From contig NC_086108.1 of the NCBI RefSeq assembly GCF_963921235.1, positions 67,644,001-67,708,000 on the forward strand: 64,000 bases of DNA. The letters run 5' to 3'. The stretch is from Mobula hypostoma (Eukaryota). A model generated the notes under the pieces. It worked only from the letters and a program-made list of their open reading frames with translations, was not told where the DNA came from and did no database searches. Below, piece after piece: positions 8,735 through 64,000 of this stretch; the stretch's first letter is position 1; the number at the start of each line of letters is the position of its first letter. The position numbers and the translations under genes are program-made.

Positions 8735-10150
8735 ATTTAGATTTAATATCACTGGCATATGTCGTGAATTATGTTGCTTTGTGGCAGCAATATAACACAA
8801 TCTATAAATTACAATGATATATAATAAAAATAAATAAACTGCAAAAAAGAGCAAAGAAAAAGAAAGAAATAGTGAGGTAGTGTAACACACACAAAATGCT
8901 GGAGGGATTCAGCAGACCAGGCAGCCTCAAAGGAAAAAAGTAAACAGTCAATGTTTAGGGCCAAGATCCTTCAGCAGTCCTCATGAAGGGTCTCGGCCCA
9001 TAGCGTCGACTGTTTACTCTTCTCCACAGATGTTACCTGGTCTGCTGAATCCCTCCAGCATTTTTTGTGTATTGCTTTGGATTTCCTGCATCTGCAGATT
9101 TTCTCATGTTTGTGAGGTAGTGTACATGGGTTCATTGTTCATTCAGAAACTGATGATTGTGGGGAACAATTTGTTTCTAAAATGTTGTGTGTGTGTTTTC
9201 GGGCTCCTGTACCTCCTCCTTGATGGTAGCAATGAAAAGAAGGAATGTCATGGGTGATAGGGGTACTTAATGATGGACACTGCCTTTTTGAGGTATCGCT
9301 TTTTCAATATGCCCTCAATACCTGGGAGCTTAATGTCCATGATGGAGCTGGCTGAGTTTGCTACCCTCTGCACCCTTCCTTCCAATCGTGCACTGCGGTC
9401 CTTCCATATCAGACGGTGATGCAACCAGTTAGAATGCTCTACATGGTACATCTGTAGAAATTTATGACAGCCTTTGATAACGTACAGTCTCCCCAAACTC
9501 CTAATGAAATATAGCTGCTGTTGGGTGTTCTTTGTAATTTAATATGTTGGCCCTGGGATAGATTTTCAGAGGTATTTGCACCTAGGAACTTGAAGCTGCT
9601 CACTCTTTTCACTGTTGATACCTCGATGAGAACTGGTGTGTGTGTGTGTTCCCTCGACCGCCCCCTCCTGACATCCACAGTCAAGTCCTTGGACTTACTG
9701 ACGTTAAGTACAAGATTGTTGTTGTGACACCACTCAACCAGCTGATCTATCACACTCCTGTATGCTTCTTCATCACCATCTAAAATTTAGCCAATAGTTG
9801 TGACAACAGTAAATTTACAGATGGCATTTGAGCTGTGCCTAGCTACAGTTGTGGGTGTAGAGAGGATAGAGCAGTGGGCTAAGCACACATCCTTGAGGTG
9901 TGTGATTGTTAATTGTCAGCAAAGAGATGTTATTTCCAATCTGCACTGACTGTGGTCTCCTGATGTGAAAGGCAAGTATCTAGTTGCAGAGGGAGGTACA
10001 GACACTCAGGTTTTGGAACTTGTTCATTAGTGCTTAAGATATGATGGTGTTGAATGCTAAGCTGTAATAAATAAACAGCAGCCTGATGCCAGGTATTGAT
10101 ATTGTCCAGGTGATTCAATGCTGAATGAAGAGTTAGTGAGATTGCATCCA
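8735..10150 (-). mobile_element. Rex/Babar-type LINE 3' portion, interrupted by the fold-back element at 8885-9111
   Basis: ORF 9439..9753 has LVEWCHNNNLVLNVSKSKDLTVD and VSSFKFLG; SIIKYPYHP follows. The 3' tail is shared with the 17820-18000 copy. Confidence 0.8.
8885..9111 (+). mobile_element. ~227-bp PLE-derived fold-back element with 13-bp TSD
   Basis: TSD GTGAGGTAGTGTA at 8872-8884 and 9112-9124. Long internal inverted repeat centred on CCTTCAGCAGTCCT. Confidence 0.85.
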
Positions 10151-12075: not shown

Positions 12076-12184
12076 AGAACAGAAAATTCTGAGTACTCAA
12101 CATGTTAGGAAGCATATGTGGAAATAAAAAGGAATGTTAATGTTTCAAGTCAATGCAATGTTTTGATTATCGTTGATCACATAC

Positions 12185-17819: not shown

Positions 17820-18760
17820 AAATCAGATTTAATATCACTGGCATATGTCGTGAAAGTTGGTTCTTTGATAGCAGCAACACAATATAATAGATAATAATAA
17901 AAACTGTGAATTGCAGTAGGTATATTTGTTGTATATACATAAAATAGTTAAATTAAATAAGCATAGCAAAAAATAGTGAGGTAGTGCACATAGATTCAAT
18001 GTCCATTCAGGGAAGAAGTTGTTCCTGAATCATTAGAGTGTGTGCCTTCATCCTTCTGTATCTCCTTCCTCAAGGTAGCAATGAGAAGAGGGCATGTTGT
18101 GAATGGTGGGGAACTGATGGATGCTTTTGAGGTATCACTTCTTGAAGATGTCCTGGATGCTACAGAGGCTAGTGCCCATGATGCAGCTGATAGAGTTCAC
18201 AACTTTCTGCAGCTTCTTTTAATCCTGTGCAGTAGCCACCCCCCCCCACCCACCCTCCCCACCTCCATACCAGATGTGATGCAGCCAGTTAAAATGCTCT
18301 CCGTGGTACATCTGTAGACATTTGCGAGCATCTTTGGTAACATATCAAATCTCCTCAAACTTCTAATGAAATATAACTGCTGCAGTGCCTTCTTTGTAGC
18401 ATAAATATGTTGGGCCCAGGATAGATCCTCAGAGAAGGTGATACCCAGGAACTTGAAATTGTTCACTCTTCCCACTTCTGATCCCTCTATGAGGACTGGT
18501 GTATTTTCCCTCATCTTACCCGTTCTGAAGTCCACAATCAGTTCTATAGTCTTACTGACAGAGTGCAAGGTTGTTGCTGTGACACCACTTAGCTTGCTCC
18601 TGTACACCTTCTTGTCACCATCTCGAATTCTGCCAACAATAGTTGTGTCATCAGCAAATTTATAGATGGCATTTGAGCTGTGCCTAGCCACACAGTCTTG
18701 GATGTAGAGAGAGTACAGCAGTGAGCTCAGCCCATATTCTTGAGGTGCACCAAGGGTGTT
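17820..18760 (-). mobile_element. Rex/Babar-type LINE 3' fragment with RT motifs
   Basis: ORF 18197..18769 contains GAPQ...LLYSLY..DC...IYKFADDTTIVG, KTIELIVDFR and YRCTTESILTGCIT. Confidence 0.85.
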
Positions 18761-18787
18761 CTTAACCAACTAGCTAAATCATAATTA

Positions 18788-18935
18788 AAACGCAAACAAC
18801 AGGAATTCTGCAGATGCTGGAAATTCAAGCAACATACATCAAAGTTGCTGGTGAACGCAGCAGGCCAAGCAGCACCTCTTCGTATAGATGCTGCTTGGCC
18901 TGCTGCGTTCACCAGCAACTTTGATGTATGTTGCT
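18788..18935 (-). mobile_element. 148-bp PLE terminal insertion with a perfect 48-bp inverted repeat
   Basis: Arms at 18827-18874 and 18889-18936. 13-bp TSD TAAATCATAATTA (18775-18787, 18936-18948). Same family as the element at 26264. Confidence 0.9.
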
Positions 18936-20907
18936 TAAATCATAATTACTACAGTTTAGCAACATTATGAACACTCTGACCACCTTCCACTAAAATGAAC
19001 CTTTTTTGTTCTGATTAAGTTTGTTTATCAAAATCTTGCATGTTTTTCTCACGAATACTGCTTATATATGCCTATCATACTGCTGCAAGTAAGTTTTAAT
19101 TGCTCAGGTGCATACATGTACTTGTGCATAAGACAATAAACTCAACTTTGACTTTGAGCTCAACCTTCATAACTAGCTCCATAAGATTACTGTCTGTAGT
19201 GAGGTGTTCAAGACAAAAAGTCTTGTGGCTATCCTAAGTGTCTTCAATGGAAATACAGGAATATCCCATCTCCCAAAGTATATTGTCTGAAACTGAAAAA
19301 AGAGCAAACATATTTTGAGGAAGGGCAATTCCTAATCAGCAATCAACTGAAAAGGAATTGAGCAAATTTTTCTTTGTGATAGATTTGATGTTAATGGCAA
19401 TGAGCAAGACTTATTTGGTTGGATGACAGAAAAGTAATCAGATTGTAGAAAGGCAATCTGAATATTATAATGTACACATAGTGCCCACCACATTAATCCC
19501 TTGAAGGTTGTTTTAAATTTGTAAAATGTGTGCTCTTATTTCTAAGAGATCTTGAGAAACAGCAAATTGTAGATTGAATGTATTTAATCTTCCCTGCTGA
19601 ATGAAATATCTTTTTGAGCACAATAAGTAGTTCAAGCAAAATATTTTAATAGGTATTCAAACGTTAATTTCAATATATAAACAACTTAGCCACTAACACG
19701 TGATCATATTATGACAAGTGGATAAATCTTGATTATTATAACTTTGTTTTGAAATGACCTTGAATATTTTTTCAAGAACTATTTTATATGCCTTAAATAT
19801 ATGTCGATAATGAAATGCTGTTGTTTCTTCAGTGTTCTTCCAAAAAAATAAATTGCCATATAATAGCGTTTATGGATGTTTTACTGTATATTCAGAAAAA
19901 TTTAACCAAATTTTACATGCAAATAAATATATAATCCATCAAGTTCAATGTTGTTATCATAACACATTTTCCTTAACCTACTGTTACAACATCAGAAGAG
20001 ATCTGACAAGACTTTTTATAATTTTCGGCTAAAATGGTTGAAAGTTGCCTTTCAACTCATGGTAAGTTCAACTAGAATTTTGAAGGTGATATTTCTAATG
20101 TTATGTAGGTCTGCCTTGTCTGTGAAATGACATCAGCCTTCCAATATTATGTTTTTGCAAAGGATTGTATCAGACTAGCCTCTGGACCATTCTTTTTAAT
20201 GACAATCAATGTGCACCAATGGTGAATTCAATGGGGAACCAACAATTCATAATATCATTAACTCCTTGATCCACTGAGATAATCTTTGGTCAGAGACATC
20301 AATGGCATTGCTGTGAAAATGTGGTGCTGCTGATACAAGCACAATCATAATAATAGCTTATTTGCAAAAGCATCAAGAACAATTTTCTAACACATTTAAG
20401 CTGGCACTCTACACTTAACCTACACTCACTTTCGCAAAATGTTTCCAATATGCACTGAAAAATCTTGTAAATAACTGTCAGCAATTTGGTCTTCAGACAT
20501 GATTCCAAAATATACCTGCTTAGTTTAAAAAAACAAGTCAGCCAGAGGTTAATTTGCGCAATAGGCAGATTTCTAGCTCATGATCCTAATATCAGAGACC
20601 ACGTATTCACACCAATGTTGCTTCCCAGGTATATTCAAATGAAGTATCCAGCCAATCTACATGTAAATTCTGTGGGTAGGGAATTGGGGTTCAGGAAGTG
20701 AGCACAGACTAAACCAAGCCCATAGCCTTGCTGGGCAGGCAATGGAATTCCTGTTCTTACTGGTAAGAACAAAGAAACAAGTCTTCTTGAGCATTTTCCA
20801 ATGGCCGCTTTAATTCACAACGAAGTCCAAAATCTGATCACTGCATCATCACATGCTACACTCAATGTCTGCCTAATTTGCTAATAGGCAACAAAAACAG
20901 CTGCTAG

Positions 20908-24400: not shown

Positions 24401-26263
24401 AATTACAGTTAATGACGTAGTCCAATGAGTTTTGGTTCTATTCCTGGCATCAAGCTCCAAGGAAGCAGAGATAAAAACTACACAAATAGAGGAAATCCTG
24501 ATACATGTTAAAACAATGCCATTCAATTAATCATGTCATAAAGTTTGTTAATATTTACATTGGAAATAAAATGAACTGAACACAATTGTACGACAAAAGA
24601 ACTTGTAAGTCTATGTCCTTTATCATATGTTTAAGACATTCTGAATGTTTTAGCAATGGTTTACCAAAGGACTGGACTCACTATTTTTATGTAGTAAAGG
24701 GTGGGAATTTTTTTTCCCCCACAATAAACAAAATTCTATAAGCAATTTAATTAACAACTTGATTATCTGCATCTTTTAAATGATAGCTTTAGTAGAATTT
24801 CTTGCTCTTCAAATATTACAATAAAACTGTTAAAATCTAAATTTTAGCAAATGTTCACAGACTTAGATTAAGATTTCATCTGAAGGACTCTGATATCCTC
24901 TCCTTATACTGCATTTGCATGAGATCAAACCAGTTCTCCAACTCAGCAGTGAGACCACTGCTAACCATTGCAATCATATGTGGGAAATTCATTAATGATA
25001 AATGCACATGTAGTAGTGGTACAGAACATGATATTTTCTCGCTGATACAAACATAGGAGATGCAATTTTGCCTCAACTTTTTCCACTAATTAGTGCTGTG
25101 AATATTGCTTTCAAGTGAAGCAACAATTTACGTACTTTTATTAATGTAATATTATGCACTTGCTGATCCATGCAGGACCTATTTTACAGGGAGCCCAAAG
25201 GTATATTGGGCAAGTTCTTTATTGAACATCACCGTTCGGTCCAGGTGACTGAGCTTCCAATCACTTGGGATCTCAAATAAAAACAGATGCTTGATAAATA
25301 GGAGCAGGCCATTCATCAGGATCAAAGCTCGTCATCTACCACAGCACCATTTTCTAGCTCCTGATTAACTAGAATAATTTCGAAGGAGAAAGTGGATAGT
25401 GTTGGTCAAGTTGTGTAATAAATCGACAGTACACAGCATGCAACAAAACTGCAATTTTTCAAATGCATTCATTGTAGGTCTGAGCCAAGACAGAAAGATA
25501 AGTTATAGAGCAGAACAAAGTATTAAAGAAAATATTCTCTCAACTACTGTTTGCTGCTCAGCATGGAAATGATGTGCTTTGTTCAAGTATGATATTTTAG
25601 TAATAGCTATTCATATCCCTGTCAAATTTTAAAATTCCCCTCTTACGAAATTGCAGATGTTAACAGGGCAAAGTTGCAAACTGAGATCACAATATAGAAA
25701 CTAACTTCTCAAAGAATTTTAAATGCCAACTCTATCACAGTACACTTTCAGTAGAATTTCACTTAATATTATTCGAAATGAGCAAATAATGCAGAAATTT
25801 TTAACGTTGCAATTCTACATTATTTAAATGACCACAAAGCCACCAGTTTGTTTTAAAACTTAACATAATCATGGTGGCAGAAATGCACCCCATTTACCTG
25901 AAACGATACCATTAAAGTTTAGCAGGTCATGCTGCATCTATGGGATAATAAATAGAGTTGACTCTTCAGATCAAAGTCATTTTGTCTGAACCACAGAGGT
26001 CAATGTTTAGAACGCAATCTGTATCAACAGTTTGGTGGAGGGAACCAAGTGCCATATTTGCAAGTTTGATAACAGTATTAATCAAGACAGCATTGTGAGT
26101 ATTGAGCAGGATGTAAGGTGGCTTCAGGGGAAAATAGACAACTATGGGAGTGGGTAAGAATATGGTAATGTAAATTAACACGAAAAGTGCAAGTAGTAAA
26201 ATGCAGATGTTTTTATACATAATTCACTGAAGCCGGTGGGCAATTTGAAGAGCAAATGATACA

Positions 26264-27248
26264 AACAACAGGAATTCTGCAGATGCTGGAAATTCAAGCA
26301 ACACACATCAAAGTTGCTGGTGAACGCAGCAGGCCAAGCAGCATCTATAGGAAGAGGCGCAATCGACGTTTCAGGCCGAGACCCTTCGTCAGGACTAACT
26401 GAAGGAAGAGTGAGTAAGGGATTTGAAAGCTGGAGAGGGAGGGGGAGATGCAAAATGATAGGAGAAGACAGGAGGGGGAGGGATAGAGCCGAGAGCTGGA
26501 CAGGTGATAGGCAAAAGGGGATACGAGAGGATCATGGGACAGGAGGTCCAGGAAGAAAGACGGGGGGGGGGGTGACCCAGAGGATGGGCAAGAGGTATAT
26601 TCAGAGGGACAGAGGGAGAAAAAGGAGAGTGAGAGAAAGAATGTGTGCATAAAAATGAGTAACAGATGGGGTACGAGGGGGAGGTGGGGCCTAGCGGAAG
26701 TTAGAGAAGTCAATGTTCATGCCATCAGGTTGGAGGCTACCCAGACGGAATATAAGGTGTTGTTCCTCCAACCTGAGTGTGGCTTCATCTTTACAGTAGA
26801 GGAGGCCGTGGATAGACATGTCAGAATGGGAATGGGATGTGGAATTAAAATGTGTGGCCACTGGGAGATCCTGCTTTCTCTGGCGGACAGAGCGTAGATG
26901 TTCAGCAAAGCGGTCTCCCAGTCTGCGTCGGGTCTCACCAATATATAAAAGGCCACATCGGGAGCACCGGACGCAGTATATCACCCCAGTCGACTCACAG
27001 GTGAAGTGATGCCTCACCTGGAAGGACTGTTTGGGGCCCTGAATGGTGGTAAGGGAGGAAGTGTAAGGGCATGTGTAGCACTTGTTCCGCTTACACGGAT
27101 AAGTGCCAGGAGGGAGATCAGTGGGGAGGGATGGGGGGGACGAATGGACAAGGGAGTTGTGTAGGGAGCAATCCCTGCGGAATGCAGGGGGGGGGGAGGG
27201 AAAGATGTGCTTAGTGGTGGGATCCCGTTGGAGGTGGCGGAAGTTACG
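26264..27248 (-). mobile_element. 5'-truncated Penelope-like retroelement (Neptune-type) with GIY-YIG endonuclease and terminal repeat
   Basis: 14-bp TSD GAGCAAATGATACA (26250-26263, 27249-27262). Open frame to the stop at 26691 with Cys linker PCKRNKCYTCP and VIYCVRCSRCGLLYIGETRRRLGDRFAEH...E..LI..LGSLQPDGMN. Confidence 0.92.
26361..26396 (-). ncRNA. Minimal type-I hammerhead ribozyme motif in a PLE terminus
   Basis: AGUC-CUGACGA-AGG(GUCUCGG)CCU-GAAA-C-GUC-GAUU: intact core, 3-bp stem II, stem I with one G-U pair. Confidence 0.7.
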
Positions 27249-28025: not shown

Positions 28026-30252
28026 ACATAGAAACATAGAAAATAGGTGCAGGAGTAGGCCATTCGGCCCTTCGAGCCTGCACCGCCATTTATTATGATC
28101 ATGGCTGATCATCCAACTCAGAACCCAGCCTTCCCTCCATACCCCCTGACCCCTGTAGCCACAAGGGCCATATCTAACTTCCTTTTAAACATAGCTAATG
28201 AACTGGCCTCAACAGTTTGCTGTGGCAGAGAATTCCACAGATTCACCACTCTCTGTGTGAAGAAGTTTTTCCTAACCTCGGTCCTAAAAGGCTTCCCCTC
28301 TATCCTCAAACTGTGACCCCTCGTTCTAGACCTCCCCAACATCGGGAACAATCTTCCTGCATCTAGCCTGTCCAATCCCTTTAGGATCTTATACGTTTCA
28401 ATCAGATCCCCCCTCAATCTTCTAAATTCCAACGAGTACAAGCCCAGTTCATCCAGTCTTTCTTCATATGAAAGACCTGCCATCCCAGGAATCAATCTGG
28501 TGAACCTTCTTTGTACTCCCTCTATGGCAAAGATGTCTTTCCTCAGATTAGGGGACCAAAACTGCACACAATACTCCAGGTGTGGTCTCACCAAGGCCTT
28601 GTACAACTGCAGTAGTACCTCCCTGCTCCTGTACTCGAATCCTCTCGCTATAAATGCCAGCATACCGTTCGCCTTTTTCACCGCCTGCTGTACCTGCATG
28701 CCCACTTTCAATGACTGGTGTATAATGACACCCAGGTCTCGTTGCACCTCCCCTTTTCCTAATCGGCCACCATTCAGATAATAATCTGTTTTCCTATTTT
28801 TGCCACCAAAGTGGATAACTTCACATTTATCCACATTAAATTGCATCTGCCATGAGTTTGCCCACTCACCCAACCTATCCAAGTCACCCTGCATCCTCTT
28901 AGCATCCTCCTCACTGCTAACACTGCCACCCAGCTTCGTGTCATCCGCAAACTTGGAGATGCTGCATTTAATTCCCTCATCCAAGTCATTAATATATATT
29001 GTAAACAACTGGGGTCCCAGCACTGAGCCTTGCGGTACCCCACTAGTCACCGCCTGCCATTCTGAAAAGGTCCCGTTTATTCCCACTCTTTGCTTCCTGT
29101 CTGCTAACCAATTCTCCACCCACACCAATACCTTACCCCCAATACCGTGTGCTTTAAGTTTGCACACTAATCTCCTATGTGGGACCTTGTCAAAAGCCTT
29201 TTGAAAATCCAAATATACCACATCCACTGGTTCTCCCCTATCCACTCTACTAGTTACATCCTCAAAAAATTCTATGAGATTCGTCAGACATGATTTTCCT
29301 TTCACAAATCCATGCTGACTTTGTCCGATCATTTCACCGCTTTCCAAATGTGCTGTTATCACATCCTTGATAACTGACTCCAGCAGTTTCCCCACCACCG
29401 ACGTTAGGCTAACCGGCCTATAATTCCCCGGTTTCTCTCTCCCTCCTTTTTTAAAAAGTGGGGTTACATTAGCCACCCTCCAATCCTCAGGAACTAGTCC
29501 AGAATCTAACGAGTTTTGAAAAATTATCACTAATGCATCCACTATTTCTTGGGCCACTTCCTTAAGCACTCTGGGATGCAGACCATCTGGCCCTGGGGAT
29601 TTATCTGCCTTCAATCCCTTCAATTTACCTAACACCACTTCCCTACTAACATGTATTTCGCTCAGTTCCTCCATCTCACTGGACCCTCTGTCCCTTACTA
29701 TTTCTGGAAGATTATTTATGTCCTCCTTAGTGAAGACAGAACCAAAGTAATTATTCAATTGGTCTGCCATGTCCTTGCTCCCCATAATCAATTCACCTGT
29801 TTCTGTTTGCAGGGGACCTACATTTGTCTTTATCAGTCTTTTCCTTTTTACATATCTATAAAAGCTTTTACAGTCCGTTTTTATGTTCTCTGCCAGTTTT
29901 CTCTCATAATCTTTTTTCCCCTTCCTAATTAAGCCCTTTGTCCTCCTCTGCTGAACTCTGAATTTCTCCCAGTCCTCAGGTGAGCCACTTTCTCTGGCTA
30001 ATTTGTATGCTACTTCTTTGGAATTGATACTATCCCTAATTTCTCTTGTCAGCCACGGGTGCACTACCTTCCTTGATTTATTCTTTTGCCAAACTGGGAT
30101 GAACAATTGTTGTAGTTCATCCATGCAACCTTTAAATGCCTGCCATTGCATATCCACCGTCAATCCTTGAAGTGTCATTTGCCAGTCTATCTTAGCTAAT
30201 TCATGTCTCATACCTTCAAAGTTACCCCTCTTTAAGTTCAGAACCTTTGTTT
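28026..30252 (-). mobile_element. Young 5'-truncated CR1 LINE with an uninterrupted 697-aa ORF2 (RT) segment
   Basis: ORF 28118..30211 has KSPGPDG, NYRPVSLTS, QHGF, LDFQKAFDKVPH, GVPQGSVLGP and FADDTK. (TTTCTATG)n tail at 28026-28042. Confidence 0.95.
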
Positions 30253-31269
30253 CATTATTTTTTCCCAGGACAGAACCTCTGAGATGATGACACCCAGGAA
30301 CTTAAAGCAGCTCACCCTTCCCACCACTAACCACTTAATCTATTCTTTCTGTGCACCTCATAATTTTGTACACTTTTTATTTATTCCCTTCCCTTGCTTC
30401 TAGCATACCCCTCTAAAAGTATGAATCATTCACTTTCCTCTTAACTAAAATCCCAGCGATACTTTTTTTTGAATCTCCTCTATATGCTTTCCAATGATGT
30501 GGTGAAAGATATCTGATAAAGAAAGAAGTATTTAGTGATGAGGATGGTGGTGCAAGACAAATGGGATGGTAAATGATCAATAGAAATAACAGAAAATAGA
30601 TTTGTGGAGCTGTAAAATGCAACACAGTACTGTCATCAGCAGCTGTTGTCTGAAAACCACCAGGAATGGTGATTATAACCTTGTATTCTTGAGCTCAGGT
30701 ACAGAATTTGCCAGCTATAACATGTCATAGTAAAAAAAAACACAACTATGAGGTGCTTTATCTCCAAACTTTCACTGCACTGTATTAGAGCAGAGAAGCA
30801 GATCAGGGCTGATGTGATTGATACAATATATATAAAATAGGGAAACCAAAAAGTGTGATGGACTTAAGAGTTCCAGAATGAATTTGATTAAGTCCCACAG
30901 AGATTAATCAAGACTAGAGCACATGACATCTGAGGTAATGTACTAACATGGACAGAGAATTGGTTGTTAGACAGAAAGCAATGGAGGGAATAAATTGGCA
31001 GTCTGTGATGTTCATAATTTGACATTGTCAGAAGATGATTGAGAATATAAAAGACACTTTAGGACTATACAACATCCCGAATGAAGACTTTTACAATTGC
31101 ATTAACATCTAGCCAGCAAAATTAAAAACTGACACAATGGATGATATTATATGTTGTGTAAAAGATGGCTGCAGTTATTGAAAGCCAATTAGTCCAGCCC
31201 CAGGATATCAATGTAGGAGTTCCTTCGGGAAGTGTTCTTGGTCCAATTATTTTGAGCTCATCAGATGCC

Positions 31270-32630: not shown

Positions 32631-33636
32631 AGATAGGCCATAAACATTATTGTAATAAATTGCTATTATGGTTTTTCCCCATTTGAAGAAGCACCTTAAG
32701 TAGTCCTGCTGGATTCATAGGTTCATGGATAGCTACTGCCTAGACTCACGGTTGCTATCTCATTGTGCAGTGCTGGATGAGAAATGGGTCAGTATTAATA
32801 AAGAGTATTCTCCATTGAAGCTACAAAGGCTGCCATGGAATTATGGCGAACGAGGTTAAGGAGAATGGAAAATCAAGAAGGGAAAGGTTCAGCAAAGGAA
32901 GGCAGTGTGTTCGGTAATGGAGCCCTCCAATCAATAGAGCAGTCCAATTAGATCCTGCACTGCCACTGCAATCACAAGTGACAGATTGCTGCATCTACAC
33001 ACTACTGCCCAGATCCTGCAGTCTTTTTCAAGACTACCTGCAGAAAAGGCAACATTTGTAAATAAATGTAGATGAGTCAGTAACAATAAATGTCCCCATG
33101 ATGTACTTGGTTAGTCTAAGTGAGTGATTAACAGAAACAAGAAGCCTGAACCACTTTCTTTGATATGGAATGTACAAAATATGACAAGGGACTAGTATTA
33201 TATTTCAGCTAAGTTATGACAGGAAGTGCCAATGTCTGGGACTTGACACTTCCTGTCATAATTCATCTGAAATATAACACCAATTCTTCAGACAATTCAA
33301 AACATCTGAATAACACCTGTTATGTGCAATTTCCATGTAAAAACATATTTACCAATCTAATATCTAAGCGCTTCTCTTTTTCCACTTCTGCTCACTTGTT
33401 TATTTCTACCCACATTTGTGCATTACCTTACAAAGTACTTTTTTCTATTACTTTTCCTTCTTGGCTTATTTATAAGAGAGAAATCTCAGGATCTCAGGAT
33501 AATCTCTGGCTCACTATGCATGTATAATGGCAGTAGCGCTCTACTGCTGATAGCAATCTTCAGAAAATATATTTCCATTGAGCAAACAATAACCGATCAG
33601 TGCACATTTTAATATTTTTGCAAATTTTCATAGTAC

Positions 33637-39784: not shown

Positions 39785-42161
39785 TCAGAGAAGGACAACC
39801 CGTTTGTTGTTGTGATTGGTGGCGAAAGCATCAATGATTTTCTGGATGTCAAGTGCTTTGGTCCTCCGGCTGTTTATGGCCAACAGGGCCAAGTTGCTGT
39901 TCCGTGCATCGCCGCCGCTATTCCTTAGGTAGTTTTTGAGGCGTCTGAGGCAAGAGAAACTCCGTTTGCATGAGGCAGATGTCACAGGCAGAGTCTGTGA
40001 TATGCAGATTAGTTTGTATAAATCTATAAATGCATCGCGGTAGGGTCTCATTAGAGCTAGAAATTCCACTGTGTCATTCACTGTCTGTCCTTGCTTTTGT
40101 TTTGTTTCCAGCAGACGCCGAACCTGATGTAGCTCTGTAGTCATGTTCACTTCAGTCACTCCATAGTACTCGGCCATTGGCCAAAGACAATTCTTGTCTA
40201 GGAAGAACTTGTGTTTGGAAGTCAGTGCTGAGACTCCAATCAGAACACCCCCAGTCTCAGCTGAGAACCGTCCTTTCATTTCAGTCAGAAGTCTGTCTAT
40301 AACCGGATAGAAACAGTGCGTACGAAGGTCAGAGGATGTGACAGGTCTGCGTTCACAACAACAAAATCATGTAGGCGGCAGGGTGGTTGGGCCTGTCTCC
40401 TTTCATGTGGTTTGTCTGCTCTGTATACCAACCTTGACGCACAGGTCCCTAGCTCTTGCCTGAATTTCACTTGATTCTTCTCCCCGTTTTGCTAAGAGTG
40501 CATCGATAACAGACTGAGCCAAATCCACAGCTGATGAAAGCTCCAAACTGGGAGATTGTAGTTGGTCTGACATGAACTTGGTGACTCGGAATAAATCCTC
40601 AAACAGAGTGAGAAGTAAAGCAAACTGCTCGTCAATCAGTCCATTTACAGCTCTGGCCTCCATTTTCCTCAGTGCATTTGGTTGACCCATAATATCCTGT
40701 AGTGTAGCTAGAATGGCAGGGAGTGATTTCCTTATAGCCCACAAAGCTGCATACTGCCATGCCCAGCGTGTATCCGACAATTTCTTCAACTCCACGGGCT
40801 GTGCAGTTGATTCCAGTTCTCTCTGTTTCTTCATGAAAAGATCGTGGGGCAACAGAGTTTGAAAAGAAGTTGTAAAACAGCTGCACAGTTTTAAAAAAAC
40901 TCACCCGCTTGTCGTACATTGCTCACAACATCCACAAAAAAAAAGGTTAGGTTAAGTCTGTGAGCATGGCAGTTTATATATAATGCCTGCGGGACCTCTT
41001 TCCTGAACCTCTCTTGTACCCCGTTATTGCACCCGGACATCACTGCCGCCCCGTCATAACACTGACCTATACACGCGTTCTTATCAATAACACACTGGGC
41101 GAGTGTCTGTTCAATGCTTTGAAGAAGCGACACTGCGTCCAAACCTTCTGCTGGAGTGAAGTGCAAGAATTCTTCAAGCACTGTTTCGTTATTCAAATAC
41201 CGTACCACTACTGATATTTGCTCCTTTTTACTCAAGTCTTTACTTTCATCCACCATGATGGCAAAATGACCAGCCTCCTTGATTTCTGCACTTATTTGAC
41301 GTCTGACCATATCTGCTAAAATACCCATAATTTCATTTTGGATATTGTGATGGATGTTCTTTGCATTTCCAGGATTATCCTATTTTTTTTAGCTACAGTC
41401 TTATCAAACTGCCCAATTACACTGAGCAACTCAACAAAGTTTCCCCTATTGCCAGATCCATCATTCTCCCGGTGTCCTCGCTGAGCAATGCCTTAGCACG
41501 CTGTATAGCATAGAGACTCAACCACTGCTCTCATATACTCACGATTTTCTTGGACAACCTTTGCATATCCTTTATCAAGCATATTTCCCAATCTTGAACC
41601 GTCTTGTTTTCTCAATCTGAATTCGGCCCATGCCTCCATCGCAAACTTATGAGCTGCACTTGCATGGTGGGTTTTGAAAGCTGTTGTAGCTTTCCACCAG
41701 TTGCGGTAACCGGTGACAGTGAAGGTAGACTCAGAATGGAACCCATGTCCTCCACACAGGAAATGCCTGCATGCAGAGCAGAACGTAATATTTTTCGTGA
41801 TCGAATATTCCAGCCTGGAGTACAGGTCAAATCAGCCACGAATAAAACTCCTTTGCTGATTGCCAAACTGTTGCGAAGGGTACTTTTTCAATGCTGGCCA
41901 ACAGGGTCCTTCCTCAGGCTGCTGGCTAACATTGCTAACAGTACTCCAACTAGCACTATGACCAGCTTCATCCACGTTCTCTTCTGAATCCCGCTCCATT
42001 TCTTGTTCCTCTACTTCGCCCTCACACTCCTTCGATGAACTGCTGTCGTCCTCATCCCCACTTACTTCCTTCTGCATGTCACTTTCAATTAAGACAGGCT
42101 TAGGCTGAGACACCACTGATTCCTCTGGATGAGGTCGTTTTCTCACTAAAAATCGATCCAT
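39785..42161 (-). pseudogene. Frameshifted hAT transposase (ZMYM1-like)
   Basis: Consecutive ORF pieces: MDRFLVRKR..., FAIMVDESKDLSKKEQISVVVRY, GQCYDGAAVMSG, YINCHAHRLNL, LKKLSDTRW, LPVTSASCKRSFSCLRRLKNYLR. Confidence 0.9.
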
Positions 42162-46100: not shown

Positions 46101-46879
46101 ACCTTAAAAAAATCACTTTAATAAAAGGTAGTAATTAAGCCATACAACAGCAACACACAAAACGCTGGAGAAACTCCGCAGGTCAGGCGGCATCTACAGA
46201 GAGAAATAAGCAGAAGACGTTTGGTGGGGTGGGAGGCTATCAGGACTTTGCACCAACTAAATTTGAAGACAGAGAGGAAGGTAAAGTTGATGAAATTGAC
46301 GAACTCGGCACGGATATAGAGGAAGAGTGGGGAACGTTAGCAGTACAGGCTTTGAACTTGGACCGTACTAAGTAGCCGATAGAAGGGCAGACACAGCTAA
46401 GGCCCATATGGATGCCCATGGCTATGGGGGGGGGGGGGAACCACTGGAATCTTAAGTAAAGAATGTGATAGCAAGATATTTAAAGAATGATATAAACCCT
46501 ACTTTCAATTTATTAACACCACGTGCATAGCAACAAGCTCCTAATGAACAACCAGTCTGAGGGGAAAACCCTGTTCACATATAACCTCTTTGCAAGTAAT
46601 CAAAGAGCACAGTCTACTTATTCAACCCCAGGAGTCCACTTAAAAGTTTTACTTTAGAAATTGCCAATCACTTCTATTGAAATTTGTGCAATAATATTCT
46701 ATTAAATGATGTAACATCACTGATACTTCAAGTCCATTGAACCCAGCTGTTGGCGATGCTGATGCTGTATCAAATCAAAGGTTTATTTTCAATTAATAGT
46801 CACAAGGCAGGTGAGAATATATACACATTCATGCTAATTGACCCTTATCAAGATGATTCAATGCAGTACTGTGGAGGTC

Positions 46880-49360: not shown

Positions 49361-49780
49361 TACATTTGTCTTAACACAGCAGTTACAGCTCTGTAGTTAT
49401 ACTGAATGATACAATTTTGAAGAAAGGGTCACTAACCTGAAGTGTTAACTCTATCTCTCTTTCTGCAGAGTGTTGCCTGATCTACTTACTATTTCCAGCA
49501 TTCTTTTTATTTCAGATTTCCATCTATACTTTTTTTTAAAATTGCTATTGTATAAAGTCTTGGCAAAACCAGACCAGGAGATTTAGGTAAAATGTTGGTT
49601 GCTTTACCTGAAAAAGGAAGTGCTTGCTCTAGAGTCATAGAGAAGTACAGCATAGAAATGGGCCATTTGGCCCATCTAGTCCATGCTGAAAACATTTAAA
49701 CTGCCTACTCCCATTGACCTGCACCAAGCCCATAGCCCTTGCCTTCTATATACCTATCCAAACTTTACTTAAATGTTGAA

Positions 49781-50168
49781 GCAACACACATCAAAGTTGC
49801 TGGTGAACGCAGCAGGCCAGGCAGCATCTCTAGGAAGAGGTACAGTCGACGTTTCAGGCCGAGACCCTTCGTCAGGACTAACTGAAGGAAGAGTTAGTAG
49901 GAGATTTGAAAGTGGGAGGGGGAGGGGGAGATACAAAATGATAGGAGAAGACAGGAGGGGGAGGGATGGAGCCAAGAGCTGGACAGGTGATTGGCAAAGG
50001 GGATATGAGAGGATCATGGGACAGGAGGTCCAGGGAGAAAGACAAGGTGGGGGGAACCCAGAGGATGGGCAGGGGATATAGTCAGAGGGACAGAGGGAGA
50101 AAAAGGAGAGTGAGAGAAAGAATGTGTGTATAAAAATAAATAACAGATGGGGTACGAGGGGGAGGTTC
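49781..50168 (-). mobile_element. PLE terminal-repeat insertion with 15-bp TSD
   Basis: TSD TACTTAAATGTTGAA (49766-49780, 50169-50183). Closely similar to 26299-26686. Confidence 0.9.
49844..49879 (-). ncRNA. Minimal type-I hammerhead ribozyme motif (best-preserved copy)
   Basis: AGUC-CUGACGA-AGG(GUCUCGG)CCU-GAAA-C-GUC-GACU: perfect stem I (AGUC/GACU), with palindromic ACGU in place of stem III. Confidence 0.75.
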
Positions 50169-51499: not shown

Positions 51500-52640
51500 T
51501 AGGTCACTGTGAGAGTGGCTATTGTGTGAGTAGGCCAGTGTTAGAGTGGAGAGTTTGAGATTTTGGCACAAAGGGGTGGAGGTAAGGTAAGTTTCTGTTA
51601 AGTTTCTTTCTTTCCTGGTCTATTAGGTATAGATAGAGTAGTGAAAATAGATCTAGGGTTAGTGGTATATTCTTCGTGTCAGATGTGAGAGTTCTGGGAG
51701 ACCTCCAGTCTCCCTAATAACTATATCTGTGTGAAATACATCTAGCTGCAGATCCTTACAGACCGTCTTAGGGAACAGGAGCTGCAGCTGATTACATTCG
51801 GCTCATACAGGAGAATGAGGAGGTGATAGGTAAGAGCTGCGGTGGTAGTCACACCTAAGTTGCAGGATAGCTGGATGACTATCAGGAGAGGGAAAGGGAG
51901 TAGGCAGGCAGTGTAGTGTACCCTGTAGCTGTTCCCCTCGCTTAAAAGGGTACTGCTTTGGATACTGTTGGGAGTGACCAACTACCAGGAGAAAGCCATC
52001 ACAACAAGATCTCTCAAACTGAGTCTGGCTCCGTGGCTCAGAAGGGAAGGGGAGAGAAGAAGAGAGCAGTGGTGATAAGGGATTCAATAGTTGAAGGAGC
52101 AGAGAAAAGATTCTGTGGACATGGAAGAGCCAGTCGGGTGGTATGTTGCCTCCCTAGTTCCAGGGTCAGGGATATCTCAGATTAGGTCAATGATTTCTAA
52201 AGGGGGAGGGTAAGCAGCCAGTACTCATACTGGTACTAACGACATAGGTAGGAAAAAGGATGAGGTCCTGAGGAGAGAATATAGGCAGCTAGGTCGGAAG
52301 CTGAAGAGCAGGATCTTAAGGCTAGTAATCTCTGGATTTCTGCCCATGCCATGAGTCAGTGAGGAAAAGGCAGAAATCTTGAGATTACTAGCCTTGAGAT
52401 GATTATTCCTGAGTAAGAAAATGGTGATTTGGGAGATGAATGTGTGGCTGAGGAACTGTTGCAGGGGGCAGAGTTTCAGATTTCTGGATCATTGGGATCT
52501 CTTCTGTGGAAGGTATGATCTGTACAAAGAGTACTGGTTGCACCTAAATTTCAGGGGGACTAACATGCTTGTAGGTAAGTGTGCTAGAACTATTAGGGAG
52601 GGGTTAAACTAGTCTGGAGGGGGTATGGGCACTGGAGTGA
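51500..52640 (+). mobile_element. CR1 5' region with a decayed ORF1 (SGNH/GDSL esterase-like)
   Basis: AVVIRDSIV...RFCG...VVCCLP..RVRDIS, GTNDI and FRFLDHWDLF...LHLN..G are CR1 ORF1 motifs. Confidence 0.8.
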
Positions 52641-52689: not shown

Positions 52690-55600
52690 GTTCCTTTGGC
52701 GCTGATCTTTGTCTCCTTAGTGGCCACAGGAATCGTACCAGATAACTGGAGGTTGGCAAATGTTATTCCTTTGTTCAAGAAATGGAGTAGAAATAACCCC
52801 AGGAATTATAAACTAGTAAGTCTTACTTCAGTAGTGTAATTTCCAGTTTTGTGGAAATGAGAAAGGATCTAGGAAGAGTGGATTGGGATAAGTTGTTTTC
52901 TGGCAAGGATGTGTTCAGTGAGTGGAAGGCCTTCAAAGGCGAAATTTTGAGAGTGCGGAGTCTGCATTTTCCTGCCAGGATTAAAGGCAAAGTTAACAGG
53001 CATAGGGAACCTTGGTTTTCAAGGGATATTGGTGGTCTGGTTAAGAAAAGGAGAGAGGTGTATAGCAGGTATAGGCAACAAGGAACAAATGAGGTGCTTG
53101 AAGAGTATAGAAAATGTAAGAAAATACTAAAGAAGGAAATCAGGAAGGCAAAAAGAAGACATGAGGTTGCTTTGGCAGATAATGTGAAGGTAAACCTGAA
53201 GGGTTTCTACAAGTACTGTATATTAAGAGTAAAAAGATAGTAAGGAACAAAATTGGTCCCCTAGAAGATCAGAGTGGTCGTCTATGTGTGGAGCTTCACG
53301 AGATGGGGGAGATCTGAAACAATATATTTTGCATCAGTATTTACTCAGGAAACTGGCATAGTGTATATGGAAGGAAGGAAAACAAGCAGTAGTGTCATGG
53401 AACATATAGAGATTAAAGAGGAGGAGGTGCTTGCTACCTTACAGCGAATAAAGGTAGATAAATCCCCTGGGCCTACCATGATACTTCCTCGGACCTTGAG
53501 AGAGACTAGTGTAGAAATTGCAGGGGCCCTGGCAGAAATATTTAAAATGTCCTTAGCCACGGGTGCGGTGCCGGAGGATTGGAGGGTAGCTCATGTTGTT
53601 CCGTTGTTTAAAAGAGGCTCCAAAAGTAAACCAAGTAATTACAGGCCGGTGAGCCTGACATCAGTAGTAGGTAAATTATTGGAAGGTGTTCTGAGAGATC
53701 AGATATACAAGTTTTTGGACAGCCAAGGGCTGATTAAGGATCGTCTGCATGGCTTTGTGCGTGGTAGATCATGTTTAATGAATCTTGTAGAGTTTTTCGA
53801 GGAGGTTACCAAGAAAGTAGATGAAGGCTGTGGATGTTGTCTGCATGGACTTTAGTAAGGCCCTTGACAAGGTCCCACATGGGAGGTTAGTTCAGAAGGT
53901 TCAGACACTAGGTATCCATGGAGAGGTTGTAAACTGGATTCGAAATTGGCTGTGTGGGAAAAGACAGAGAGTGGTAGTGGATGATTGCTTCTCAGACTGG
54001 AGGCCTGTGACTAGTGGTGTGCCTCAGGGATCTGTGCTGGGACCATTGTTGTTTGTTGTCTATATTAATGATCTAGATGATAATGTGATAAACTGGATCA
54101 GCAAGTTTGCTGATGACACTAAGATTGGAGGCATTGTGGACAGCGAGGAAGGCTTTCAAAGGTTGCAGAGGGATCTGGACCAACTAGAAAAATGGGCCAG
54201 AAAATGGCAGTTGGAATTTAAGGCAGACAAGTGTGAGGTGTTGCATTTTGGAAGGACAAGTCAAGGTAGGACATACATAGTAAATGGTAGGGCACTGAGG
54301 AGTGTGGGGGAACAAAGAGATCTGGGTGTTCAGATACATAATTCCCTGAAAGTGGCATCACAGGTAAACAGGGTTGTAAAGGTTTTGGCATCCTGGCATT
54401 CATAAATCAAAGTATTGAGTATAGGAGTTGGGATGTTATGGTGAGGTTTTATAAGACATTGGTGAGGCCAAATTTGGAGTATTGTGTGCATTTCTGGTCA
54501 CCTAACTATAGGAAGGATATCAGTAAGATTGAAAGAGTGCAGAGAAGATTTACTAGGATGTTGCTGGGTCTTCAGGAGTTGAGTTACAGGGAAGGATTGA
54601 ACAGGTTAAGACTTTATTCCTTGGAGTGTAGAAGAATGAGGAGGGATTAGCTAGAGGTTTACAAAATTATGAGGGGTATAGACAGAGTAAATGTGAGTAG
54701 GCTCTTTCCACAGATTAGGAGAGATAAAAATGAGAGGACATGGCCTTAGGGTGAAAGGGGAAAGGTTTAGGGGGAACAATAGAGGGGAGTTCTTCACTCA
54801 GAGAGTGGTGGGAGTGTAGAACGAGCTGCCATCTGACGTGGTAAATGCGGGCTCACTCTTAAGTTTTAAGAATAAATTGGATAGATACATGGATGGGAGA
54901 GGTCTGGAGGGTTATGGACTGGATGCAGATCAATGGGACAAGCGGAATAAAGTTTTGGCACAGACTAGATGGGTCGAATGGCCTGTTTTCTGTGCTGTAG
55001 TGTTCTATGGTTCTATGGTGGGCAAATTATTGGGAAAGATTTTTATAGACAGGATTTATGAGCATTTGGTAAAACATAGTATGGTTGGGGATAGTCAGCA
55101 TGGCTTTCTAAAGTGTGGGTCATATCTCACAAACCTGACTGAATTCTTTAAGGATGTGACAAAGCACGTTGATGAAGGTAGAGTAGTGGGTATGGTGTTA
55201 GGCATTTGATAAGATTCCCTCTGGTAGGTTAATTCAGAAAGTCACGAGGCATCGGATTCAGAGAAACCTGGCTTCGTAGATTCAGCATGGCATGACCATA
55301 AAAGGCAAAGGAAGGTTGTAGATGGAGTGTTTTCTGTCTAGAAGTTGACCCGTGGTTTTCCACTGGGAACTATTCTGGGATTCCTGCTCTTTGTGATATT
55401 TAAATATAACTTGGATAAGGAAGTGGAAGGGTGGGTTAGGAAACCTATAATAAATAACATTAAGGTTGGTGGAGTGGTGGATAATGTAAAGGATTGTCAT
55501 AGGTTATAACAGGGTTTTGACAAGATGCAGAGCTGAGCTGAGAAGTGGCAGATGGAATTCAACCCTGGAAAGTGTGAAGTGATTCATTTTGGAAGGTTGA

Positions 55601-57009: not shown

Positions 57010-58140
57010 ACCATAAGGATTTGAGCAAACAGGATTTAGAAGCATTTGAAGAAACCTAGTTTGATTAGAGATAGTCAGCATGGCTTTGTGTGCGGCAAGT
57101 CATGCCTCACAATTTTGAATGAATTCTTTGAGAATGTGACAAAGCACATTGATGAAGGTACAGTATAGGGATTATAGTAAGGCATTTGACGTGATTCTTC
57201 ATGTTAGGCCCATTCAGAAAGTCAGGAGGCATGGGGTCCAGGGAAAACTGGTTGCATGCTTCCAGAACTGGCTTGCCGTTGAAGGCAGAGGGAGGTTGTA
57301 GATGGAGCTTACTCTGGTAACTAGTGGTGTTCTGCAGGAATCTGTTCTGGGATCTCTGCTCTTTGTGATTTTTATGATTGTCTTGGGTGAGGAAGTGGAA
57401 GGATGTAGATGACATGAAAGTTGGTGGAAGTGTAGAAGGCCGTCATAGGTTACATTGGGACAGTGAAAGGATAGAGAGCTGGGCTGAGATGTAGCAGATG
57501 GAGTTCAACCTGGAAAAGTGTGAAGTGATTCATTTTGAAAGGTTGAATATGATGGCAGAACACAGGATTGATGGCATGATTATTGACAGTGTGAAGGAAG
57601 AGAGGGATCTTGGGGTCCATACCCATAGATCCCTCAAAGCTGCTGTGCAAGTTGACAGGGTCATTGAGAAAGCGTATGCTGTATTGGCCTTCATTAGTTG
57701 GAACACACTGTGAGGTAATGTTGCAGCTCAAAAAACCCTGGTTAGACCACACTTGAAATATCGTAACGCTCACAAAATGCTGGAGGAACCAGGCAGCTTC
57801 TATGGGAAAGAGTAACCAGTTGACGTTCCCGGCCGAGACCCTTCAGCAGTCCTGATGTAGAGACTTGGCCTGAAATATAGACTGCTTACTCTTTTCCATC
57901 AATGCTGCCTGGCCTGCTGAGTTCCTTCAGAATTTTATGTGTGTTACTTTGAGTTCCAGCTTCTGCAGATTTTCTCCAGCTTGAAACATTGTGCTCATTT
58001 CTGGTCACCTTATTATAGGAAGGATGTAGGCACTTTAGAGAGGGTGTAGAGGAGATTTGCCAGACTTCTGCCTGAATTAGAGAATATGTTTTATGAAGGT
58101 AGGTTGAGTAAGCTCAGACCTGTGCTGTAGAGTTCTAAAG
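57010..58140 (+). mobile_element. Degenerate CR1 interrupted by a fold-back element
   Basis: DSQHGFVCGKSCLT, MEFNLEKCEVIHF and LVRPHL motifs. Confidence 0.78.
57765..57979 (+). mobile_element. Second ~215-bp PLE-derived fold-back element
   Basis: Degenerate 13-bp TSD CTTGAAATATCGT (57752-57764) / CTTGAAACATTGT (57980-57992). Same centre CCTTCAGCAGTCCT as the 8885 copy. Confidence 0.8.
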
Positions 58141-60885: not shown

Positions 60886-63800
60886 GCGAGTCTCGAACAC
60901 ACAGTGATGGACCCAACAGAGAGAGAGCAGCTGACCTTGGCCGTGAGATTCATTGGTCAGGTAGGAGGCAAGCTACAGGCAATGGAATCTGTTCTCAGTG
61001 AAGTTACAGAGGCAATGACGCAGATAACCTCATGCCGACAAACTCAGTCTCACTTGAAGGAACAGGTATCGTCCTTAGCTGCAACTGTTCAACAGCTCAC
61101 CACAGACAATTGGACACAGGTGTCTGCAATTTTCGCACTCACGGCCACCGTCCACGAACTTACTGAGAACAGCCAGCATCAGCTGACAGCCATTAACGTT
61201 CTCGCCAGCTCAATTCAGCAGCTTCAGGCCACCTCAGTCCCACTCCCAGCATCTCACAGGTCCTCCGTTTCTGCTGCCCCAACAACCTCTGCTACTAATG
61301 CTCCCGCTCCCGCGCCTGGACCAGAGCCAACTCCCACGACCATACAGGAACCGAATATTCTATCACCAGGCAGATATTCTGGTGATCCCGATGGTTGCAG
61401 GAATTTTATTACCCAATGCGAGCTGACATTCCAAGCCCAGCCTGGTCGTTTTGGTGATAGTGTGTGAAAATTGGCGTGCATGGTCAATCTTCTTGACGGA
61501 CCTCCAATCAGCCTGTTCAATGCTTTACGGCAGCAAGGATACTCCGCAGCCCAGTCATTCTGACATTTTGTGACGGAGTTAAGGAGGGTTTTTGATCTTC
61601 CAGTACGGGGTCAGGAGGCTGCCCACCGACTCTTGGACCTGTGCCAAGGCATAGGTAAGAGCCTATGCAGTTAAATTCCGTACCCTTGCAGTAGAGACAG
61701 AATGGAATGAGAGATCTCTCATCAGTGCCTTACAGCGTGGACTGAATGCGGGGGTCCGGCATAAGATTGTTGCCCGGGATGAGCAGGATAGTCTCGATGA
61801 CCTGATTAATCTGGCTATTCAAGTTGACAACTGGGTAACTGAGTGGTGCAGGGAAAGAATGTTTCAAACTTCCTGATCACTGTCTTTCCTCACCCTCTCC
61901 CCCCTCCCTCACCAGTCAGCATCCAACCAACGGAGGAGCCTATGTGAGTGGGGCGCATATGCCTGTCTCAGGAGGAATGAGAGCGCTGCCAGAGAACAGG
62001 ATCCTGCCTCTATTGTGGTGATCCAGGACACTTCCGGGCTGCATGTTCCAAGAGTCCAGTAAAAGAGAATACCCGTCAGCAGGGAGGGGAATCTTGATGG
62101 GTCGGTTCTCTCTACACTCAGCTTCCCCTAATCCTGTAGTGCTCGTAGCTTCCTTGTTGTGGAGGTCTCAGACCCATGAACTTAAGGCATTTATTGACTC
62201 TGATGCAGCCGGGAAGCTTATGGACATCTCTCTCACTCAAAGATGGGAAGTTTCAATTCAGGAATTAGAGAAAAGATCAACATCAAGGCGCTGGATGGTT
62301 GACTTCTGGGTGCCGGCCAGATCCACCTTTCCACCCAACCCCTCCAACTGGTGCTCGAAGGCAACTATCATGAAGAAATATCTTTCTATCTGGTTAATTC
62401 ACCTGACCTGCCACTGGTACTTGGCCTCCCCGGTTATCCTGACATAATCCACGGATCGATTGGTCTCTGAAGGTACTCCAAGAGTGGGGACCGGCATGCC
62501 TGTCTACCTGTCTGGGTCCAGCTCAAGCTCCATTCCATGAATCCCCTCCTGTGACAGCTAAGGATGTGGACCGGTCTGGGATTCCAGCTGGATCTGCGGA
62601 TCTCCTTGAGGTTTTGAGTAAAAGAAAGGCCACCACCCTGCCCCCACACCGGCCATACGACTGTGCCATAGACCTCCTACCTGGCACTAGACCTCCCCAG
62701 GGCCAGTTCTTTTTCCTCTCTCGTCCTGGAACGATGGCCATGGAGGAATACCTTAATGAGACATTGAACATGGAGTTTATCCATGCGTCAACCTCGCTGG
62801 CAGGAGCGGGCTTCTTTTTTGTGAGCAAGAAAGATGGCAAGCTCCATCCCTGCATCGATTATCGGCCCCTGAACAATATCACTGTGAAGAACCGCTACCC
62901 TCTTCCCTTGCTGGTGTCTGTGTTTGAACAGGGAGCAACCATATTTTCCAAAATTGATCTGCACAATGCTTACAATCTGATTTGCATAAGAGAAGGGGAT
63001 GAGTGGAAAGCAACTTTCATCACCTCTAATGGCCACTATGAATACCTGGTGATGCCTTTTGGTCTGGCCAATGCCTCCGCTGTATTCCAGGCCTTGGATA
63101 ACGATGTGCTCAGGGACATGTTGAATCAGTTTGTGTTTGTGTATTTAGATGACATCCTTATCTATTCCTGATCTCAGCAGGAGCATGTCCAGCATGTCTC
63201 GAAAGAACTCAGATGCCTTCCTGAAAATGACCTGCATGGCAAGGCTGAAAAATGTGAATTCCATAAAGACCAAGTGTCGTTTTTCGGCTATATTCTTGCC
63301 CCATCCAGTGTTCAAACGGACCCCAGTAAAATTCAGGCAGTTGCAGAGTGGCCAAACAGTCTACAATCAAACAGGTACGGCACTTCATGGGGTTTGTGAA
63401 CTTTTATCACCACTTCATCTGGAATTTAATGCACTCATCAAGAAAACCTCAGCAGGGTTCCATTGGACGGACGATGCTGACCAAGTATTTTCAGAGCTAA
63501 AGCGACATTTCACCACTGCCCCGCTGCTGCAACACCCGGACCCATCTCAGCCATTCATTGTCGAGGTGGATGCATCCGATGTAGGCATTGAAGCTGTCCT
63601 CGCTCAGCGCTCGTCTGCAGATAGCTGGCTGCACCCTGGTCCCTTTCTTTCCCATTGCTTGGCTCCGGCCGAGAGGAATTACAATGTTGGGAACCAGGAG
63701 CTTCTGGCTGTCAAGGAGGCCCTGGAGGAATGGCAACACTGGCTGCAGGGGGCAGAGCATCCATTCTTGATCTGGACAGATCACAAGAACCTCACCTATA

Positions 63801-64000
63801 TTCAGGATGCTAAGAGACTCAACTCTCGTCAAGCCCGGTGGGCTCTCTTCTTCACATGGTTCAATTTCATCCTCACTTAAAAAGACAGTTTTGGTGGCCA
63901 TCTATGTCCCAGGATGTCCAAGACTTTGTATCTGCCTATCCCACCTGCACTTAGAACAAGACATCACGCCAGCATCCTGCAAATCTGTTATGTCCACTGC
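60460..64000 (+). mobile_element. Sushi-like Ty3/Gypsy LTR retrotransposon, decayed, truncated by the window end
   Basis: Gag from MDP at 60907 (PGRYSGDPDGCRNFITQC), zinc knuckle CLYCGDPGHFRAAC (~62005-62046), protease [22 protein letters not shown]...YLDDILIYS, RNase [10 protein letters not shown]...TDHKNL, integrase piece FWWPSM. Confidence 0.93.

Follow-up and report, generated by a model that had tools for sequence, protein, structure and literature searches.

Introduction

How Penelope-like elements (PLEs) form their inverted arms is still treated as an open question in the parts of Craig et al. (2021, PMC8557442) concerned here, and the stretch of DNA analysed in this work (64 kb in all, hereafter the window) raises it in a particular form. 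Two inserts, E1 (8885-9111) and E2 (57765-57979), are fold-backs of a PLE 3' end, and they turn at the same point, beside a hammerhead motif. Does this common centre mean that one fold-back was amplified as a family, or was the inverted arm made again at each insertion, with a preferred place of turning? A preliminary description of the window favored the first answer, and saw in the inserts a SINE- or MITE-like parasite of the PLE that might be new to science.

Several features of such inserts have been reported for other PLEs. In Pen2a, Pen2 and Pen3a of Adineta vaga, according to the passages of Arkhipova et al. (2013, PMC3846280) that deal with them, the inverted pLTR is shorter than the direct one, a 31-bp tail is found on one side, and the target-site duplications (TSDs) measure 8-10 bp; the palindromes at the pLTR 5' ends and at the inverted junctions are read there as self-priming. 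Craig et al., in their general account of PLEs, name an inverted and 5'-truncated adjacent copy, a 30-40-bp tail and heavy 5' truncation, and Schostak et al. (2008) noted that PLE inverted repeats differ in size between copies. For Poseidon of Anolis carolinensis (PAc), the sections of Frangieh et al. (2024, PMC11167929) on insertion equate the tail with the distance between two internal RT start sites, and report cutting of both target strands, together with an insertion in vitro for which hammerhead cleavage is dispensable. The hammerheads of PLEs are of a minimal type I, with an extra base after A9 and a palindromic C-G at 15.2/16.2, as defined in the relevant part of Cervera and de la Pena (2014, PMC4209133), where pairs of minimal hammerheads, one on either strand and separated by 100-700 bp, are also described in Schistosoma. 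The same authors suggested, in the text on metazoan non-LTR retrozymes (Cervera and de la Pena 2020, PMC7229834), that these depend on PLEs.

Results

Anatomy of the two fold-backs

The whole sequence of both inserts is PLE 3' terminus. E1 begins with an inverted, tail-less arm (8885-8973, minus strand), followed by a sense arm (8975-9073, plus strand); the aligned stretches 8884-8973 and 8984-9073 are 90 nt long each, with a complementarity of 81%. A tail of 38 nt (9074-9111, plus strand) is present on the right side only, and ends where the 3' ends of matched contigs cluster (9111-9115). E2 has the same build, with an inverted, tail-less arm carrying a 9-nt deletion (57765-57845, minus strand), a sense arm (57847-57945, plus strand), central arms of 61 nt with 74% complementarity, and on the same side a tail of 34 nt (57946-57979, plus strand). 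Inverted repeats of the PLE terminus with a one-sided tail of about 35 nt are what the preliminary description had proposed, and the fold-back arms indeed align to the 3' end of P26, a PLE copy described below.

Both inserts lie within LINE copies, E2 in one of CR1 type. The TSD of E1 is perfect (13/13; 8872-8884 and 9112-9124, plus strand) and that of E2 matches at 11 of 13 positions (57752-57764 and 57980-57992, plus strand). Empty sites were found by flank-by-flank local alignment to paralogous LINE copies: both halves of the E1 duplication align to a single site at 17976-17988, and both halves of the E2 duplication to about 54473-54485, where the left-flank alignment is weak (score 31). 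Since the two halves lead to one paralogous site in each case, they are true duplications, and the 13-bp length given for them earlier stands.

At the centre, the 14-nt junction CCTTCAGCAGTCCT is identical in E1 (8968-8981, plus strand) and E2 (57840-57853, plus strand). As had been stated, the identity is exact, and these are its only two exact matches in the 64-kb window; three matches are obtained when up to two mismatches are allowed, against 0.57 expected. The junction holds a TC loop (8978-8979 in E1) and a G (G8974) that breaks the mirror in both inserts. The left ends of E1 and E2 agree within 1 nt, and the overall identity of the two is 74.6% over 224 columns. Both gave strong hairpins on RNA folding (z = -14.7 for E1 and -6.0 for E2, with none of 200 shuffles equally good in either case), in agreement with the fold-back character first assigned to them, and the E1 hairpin is predicted at -125 kcal/mol. 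A contig of organism B differs from E1 at 1 position over 8945-9081, so that E1, judged by this sequence, likely predates the split of organisms A and B.

The PLE and its other copies in the window

P26 (26261-27320, minus strand) is a 5'-truncated PLE 3' end that retains a GIY-YIG domain (Pfam PF01541, E 9.4e-05) preceded by a CX4CxxC linker. The sense arms of E1 and E2 are 69-71% identical to it, and the PF01541 frame lies upstream in P26; no PLE RT domain was found within the 64-kb window. The linker recalls the CX2-5CxxC linker of Neptune and Nematis as given in the corresponding part of PMC8557442. The hammerhead of P26 is located at about 26360-26397, together with an imperfect palindrome centred on the TC of E1 and E2. 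P49 (49781-50168, minus strand) is an ordinary, tail-less, single-arm copy of a younger subfamily, with a 15-bp TSD and a built-in palindrome on the E1/E2 centre. The 3' end of P49 is the tail boundary and that of P26 is the tail end, and the two arm ends of E1 and E2 are the two 3' ends used by ordinary copies. Related copies in the window have TSDs of 13 and 15 bp. Given the ends of P49 and P26 and the 15-bp duplication, neither the tail, nor the ends, nor the TSD separates E1 and E2 from ordinary copies. An old single-arm copy (46149-46247, minus strand) seemingly runs from the helix-I edge to the tail boundary; its stem II region is too decayed for certainty.

A profile derived from the PLE copies of the window gave 15 matches at 12 loci, 9 of them strong, with three weak loci left out of the nine (12077-12147, 25921-25967 and 49424-49504; E 0.0015-0.031). 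Six of the nine strong PLE ends are single-arm copies and three are fold-backs, namely E1, E2 and a further one, E3 (18788-18935, minus strand), which is absent from the preliminary description. E3 belongs to the younger subfamily and has a 40-nt tail, a 13/13 TSD (18775-18787 and 18936-18948) and arms that are 96% complementary. Its centre is near 18881, 3' of the hammerhead, with microhomology at 5 of 6 positions at the join.

Hammerhead motifs

Because no Rfam hammerhead model matched, the hammerheads were read by eye against the layout in the relevant part of PMC4209133. At gathering score the whole window gave no Rfam match, and relaxed scans of P26 and E1 returned no hammerhead family. 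The matches obtained in these scans were all sub-threshold, for E1 mainly to generic hairpin (miRNA) models, and were rejected. P49 displays the minimal type-I layout, with helix I, the core, an extra base after A9, a short helix II, GAAA and the palindromic CG.

The first base of helix I is also the first base of the sense arm (8975 in E1, 57847 in E2), so the junction does lie at the 5' edge of the hammerhead, as first noted. The tail-bearing strand carries a whole minimal type-I motif at 8975-9012 (plus strand) and at 57847-57884, decayed in both inserts: in E1 the core G5 has become C and the GAAA box reads ATAG, and in E2 A9 has become T and stem II is broken. On the other strand, the antisense motif of both left arms has a C at the A6 position and is devoid of the 5' strand of helix I, a loss due to the inverted arm turning inside that strand. 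The earlier claim of one decayed hammerhead on each strand is thus sustained for the tail-bearing strand and fails for the opposite one, where the motif is incomplete. To judge from these letters, a whole minimal hammerhead appears to have been present in the tail-bearing arm only, and to be dead in both copies. A transcript of E1 or E2 would, on the predicted fold, bury both hammerhead cores in one hairpin. Since the inverted arm never held a whole motif and the cores would be buried, the apparent back-to-back hammerheads are best taken as a geometric result of the arm's turning point.

In P26 and P49, base pairing is predicted between the hammerhead core and the sequence upstream of helix I (26386-26405 and 49869-49888, minus strand). 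According to this model, such pairing could silence the ribozyme in read-through RNA.

Comparison of the arms and the mirror-breaking G

If a master hairpin had been frozen and then copied, left-arm-specific changes would be expected in all copies. Alignment of the four arms of E1 and E2 (about 85 columns) revealed one left-versus-right site outside the loop, together with two E1-versus-E2 sites and two crossed sites. This sole left-arm-specific base is the G at 8974 and 57846, where a perfect mirror would need T. Moreover, three letters found in both arms of E1 are minority letters among the matched contigs and are missing from E2 where alignable; they may reflect a distinct source molecule or a later conversion from arm to arm, and are mild evidence. 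The three letters lie in a 29-bp perfectly complementary stretch of E1 (8893-8921/9036-9064; P about 0.01).

Both P26 and P49, the younger PLE copies, have CCTTCAG just upstream of helix I, and both are predicted to fold back on the E1/E2 centre as RNA and, weakly, as cDNA (DNA -3.2 and -3.9 kcal/mol), which suggests that the G may come from the sense strand of the parent, with a crossover within the 6-nt CCTTCA match. Old-type ordinary copies (F2, F31 and the listed loose ends at 8975) show a majority upstream sequence without CCTTCAG, and among these no old-type copy with CCTTCAG was found; we therefore only infer a parent that supplied the G. Alternatively, the G may stem from the RNA end, either as a copy of the cap or as a base added without a template. 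Both kinds of event are known for other RTs. A third source may be a mutation that arose in a master copy. The question rests on two copies, E1 and E2, which are too few to separate the three.

Recurrence of the centre across contigs

Contigs of organisms A, B and G were matched to the reference segment 8945-9130 at 80% likeness, which gave 19,745, 18,522 and 17,521 matching contigs respectively; the PLE is a very abundant one. Run X1 is possibly the window's own sample, and B and G are therefore regarded as the independent runs. The statements below refer to the best 15 of 42 joints, 40 of 133 letter rows and 24 of 942 loose-end rows.

Nine opposite-strand joints are among those listed, and three of them pass through the centre: 8953-9066 (X15), 8954-9063 (X1 with X19) and 8954-9072 (X15). 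In each of these three the piece is too long for the space left of 8954, so that the joint has to cross the centre. The remaining six comprise two joints that must be head-to-head and have 8975 or 8984 as the start of one arm, one tail-to-tail joint and three ambiguous ones. Through-centre records at other loci come from organisms A and G. Reversed loop letters (8978 T>G) occur in 54, 41, 32 and 3 contigs among the rows listed (organisms A, B and G); these contigs are presumably same-centre fold-backs aligned backwards, to which antisense ordinary arms could contribute. The junction is thus no one-off, as the preliminary description had supposed: the centre recurs at several loci, yet other centres exist.

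Matching stops at 8975 in 166 contigs of X1 and 157 of X5 among those listed, with pyrimidine-rich sequence upstream, and these contigs are ordinary, common PLE copies. The ratio of the depth at 8966-8972 to that at 8987-8993 was 0.032 (X1), 0.030 (X5) and 0.137 (X15), a weak measure, given that contig depth is not copy number and that changes private to E1 shift the alignment ends. Tandem (tail-to-head) contigs were also seen, for example one arrangement in which 9115 is followed, after 39 intervening letters, by 8974; they represent direct pLTR repeats.

A translated-ORF search for junction variants gave no match at E 0.001. The 22-23-nt PLE-end motif was found at no locus in viral contigs, at none in prokaryote genomes and at one in metagenomes; this single match has no flanking similarity and was dismissed as chance.

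Surrounding sequence

The window is vertebrate DNA, presumably of a cartilaginous fish, and is rich in repeats, with fragments of CR1-type and other LINEs, hAT elements, LTR retrotransposons and PLEs. A 727-aa open frame of a LINE ORF2 (28118-30301, minus strand) contains an RT domain (RVT_1, E 6e-34) and is, we assume, of CR1 type. A broken hAT transposase (Dimer_Tnp_hAT, DUF4371) lies at 39785-41379 (minus strand). Pieces of an LTR-retrotransposon pol (RT, RNase H) with shifted frames, which we take to be Gypsy-type, were found at 62443-63880 (plus strand). Two short palindromes unrelated to PLEs, at 33195-33280 and 52313-52400, are 83% and 79% self-complementary and have no Rfam match at gathering score.

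Discussion

The build of E1 and E2 is already known in its outline, and on sequence grounds the two may be regarded as a new instance of it. Indeed, they share with the Adineta vaga unit of PMC3846280, as far as its relevant passages go, a shorter inverted arm in head-to-head position, a one-sided tail, a TSD around the whole and a palindrome at the junction. They differ from it in that the arms there frame an ORF or cargo, whereas E1 and E2 consist of two arms alone, and in that the TSDs there are 8-10 bp long against 13 bp here; the passages in question make no mention of a junction at the edge of hammerhead helix I. The heavy 5' truncation, the inverted adjacent copy and the tail at one end (38, 34 and 40 nt in E1, E2 and E3) likewise fit the general PLE features in PMC8557442, whose parts concerned describe no class of ORF-less inserts with a fixed centre. 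Since the build corresponds to the published PLE insertion unit in these portions of PMC3846280 and PMC8557442, the idea of something undescribed is not supported. A search of the literature by titles and abstract openings found, among the matches listed, no description of a PLE family made up of fold-backs with one fixed centre in cartilaginous fishes. The cited PLE work concerns a rotifer, flies and a lizard, and elements other than that of E1 and E2.

We think it probable that both E1 and E2 arose by insertion of a PLE 3' end in head-to-head form and have since decayed, that the inverted arm was likely made afresh each time, and that the 5' edge of helix I is a likely hot spot for the turn. 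The anatomy, the TSDs, the arm ends, the recurring centre and the existence of other centres are seen directly; what we infer is that the RNA ends or the RT stalls at helix I, how priming takes place and where the G comes from, as follows. The PLE protein would nick both target strands about 13 nt apart, and cDNA synthesis would start at the outer of two internal start sites, that is, at the tail end. The cDNA would reach helix I or go slightly beyond it, since this is probably where the RNA has its start or where the RT comes to a halt. At this place the short palindrome around the TC loop could allow the cDNA 3' end to snap back, or the cDNA could anneal with a second cDNA primed at the inner start site; either event would leave an inverted arm that extends no further than the tail boundary. 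As for the odd G, it would belong to the parental sequence that precedes helix I, or else be a single base, copied from the cap or added without a template. Because the long hairpin would bury the ribozyme core, we predict inserts that are inactive from the moment of insertion. The tail-defining start sites of this model are shared with PAc, for which clade and host differ, and the inverted arms are left unexplained in the corresponding sections of PMC11167929. A hot spot, as opposed to a fixed centre, is supported by E3, one of three fold-backs of the window and centred elsewhere. It is harder to reconcile with a junction whose mirror-breaking G and all other letters are identical in copies otherwise about 75% alike, and the recurring centre is predicted by a master copy as well.

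Such a master copy is the substance of the amplified family, in which one fold-back, or the inverted head of a master PLE locus, would have been transcribed across the junction and retrotransposed repeatedly by the PLE protein. We regard this as rather unlikely. It would account for the identical junction with its mirror-breaking G in E1 and E2, for the agreement of their left ends and for the recurrence of the centre in three species, and it is made plausible by short non-autonomous PLE derivatives (MRC1, in the part of PMC8557442 that treats it) and by the ability of the pLTR alone to mobilise cargo in trans (PMC3846280, in the passage concerned). However, the left arms have no further diagnostic site in the four-arm alignment, the two arms of E1 have common letters missing in E2, and E3 shows that a fold-back can be formed at another centre. 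The ends and the TSD length are those of ordinary copies, the low depth left of the centre is a further, weak objection, and the RT would presumably have to get across a perfect RNA duplex of 90 bp. Thus, with E3's other centre, the ordinary ends and TSDs, the palindrome built into the younger copies and a single left-arm-specific base, the SINE- or MITE-like parasite of the preliminary description is not upheld. Coincidence, meaning two independent inversions at random positions, for instance by DNA repair after insertion, seems improbable to us. The different centre of E3, with its microhomology, would be in keeping with it, and the window was picked because two copies agreed; yet the loop and the odd G are common to both copies, and more through-centre records exist at other loci and in other species. 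In addition, a single clean TSD encloses both arms of each insert, which indicates that the arms were formed at insertion.

A working double-ribozyme element, retrozyme- or viroid-like, that would cleave both strands and spread via small or circular RNA is in our opinion very improbable. Hammerhead core letters are indeed present on both strands, and metazoan retrozymes with type-I hammerheads exist and are proposed users of PLEs (PMC7229834, in the portion on these elements), which E1 and E2 resemble in being small, non-coding and hammerhead-bearing with long TSDs. But in both copies the antisense motif carries a C in place of A6 and is without the 5' strand of helix I, core bases are missing from the sense motifs, and the -125 kcal/mol hairpin would bury both motifs. 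Moreover, the arms of E1 and E2 are head-to-head, and their motif is of the minimal PLE type; retrozymes, as portrayed in the same source, consist of direct repeats in tandem, bear canonical hammerheads and form abundant circular RNA, to be compared here with inverted termini and dead minimal motifs. The dual motifs of Schistosoma in the relevant part of PMC4209133 are not alike either, for in E1 and E2 the two motifs overlap at a single junction, and parts of the antisense motif are missing. Finally, a MITE or foldback DNA transposon, moved by a transposase via terminal inverted repeats, would also be short, non-coding, palindromic and flanked by TSDs, and can hardly be believed in: the tail of 34-40 nt keeps the inverted repeat from reaching the right end, the entire sequence is PLE terminus, the 3' ends vary (9111-9115), and TSDs of both 13 and 15 bp occur among related copies.

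Formation of the inverted arm at insertion, with a preferred turn at the ribozyme edge and one recurrent extra base, offers features that can be counted genome-wide and tested in vitro, and such counts and tests could separate snap-back from twin priming. For annotation, it means that repeat libraries may list PLE stumps as MITEs or as unknown palindromic families. More tentatively, and with less than even confidence, the junction might be a fossil of PLE replication, recording an RNA that starts at helix I, a cap or extra base and self-priming, or else the mark of one fold-back turned ORF-less PLE parasite across these species. If either were true, the junction would give a precise and countable handle on how inverted pLTRs are formed.
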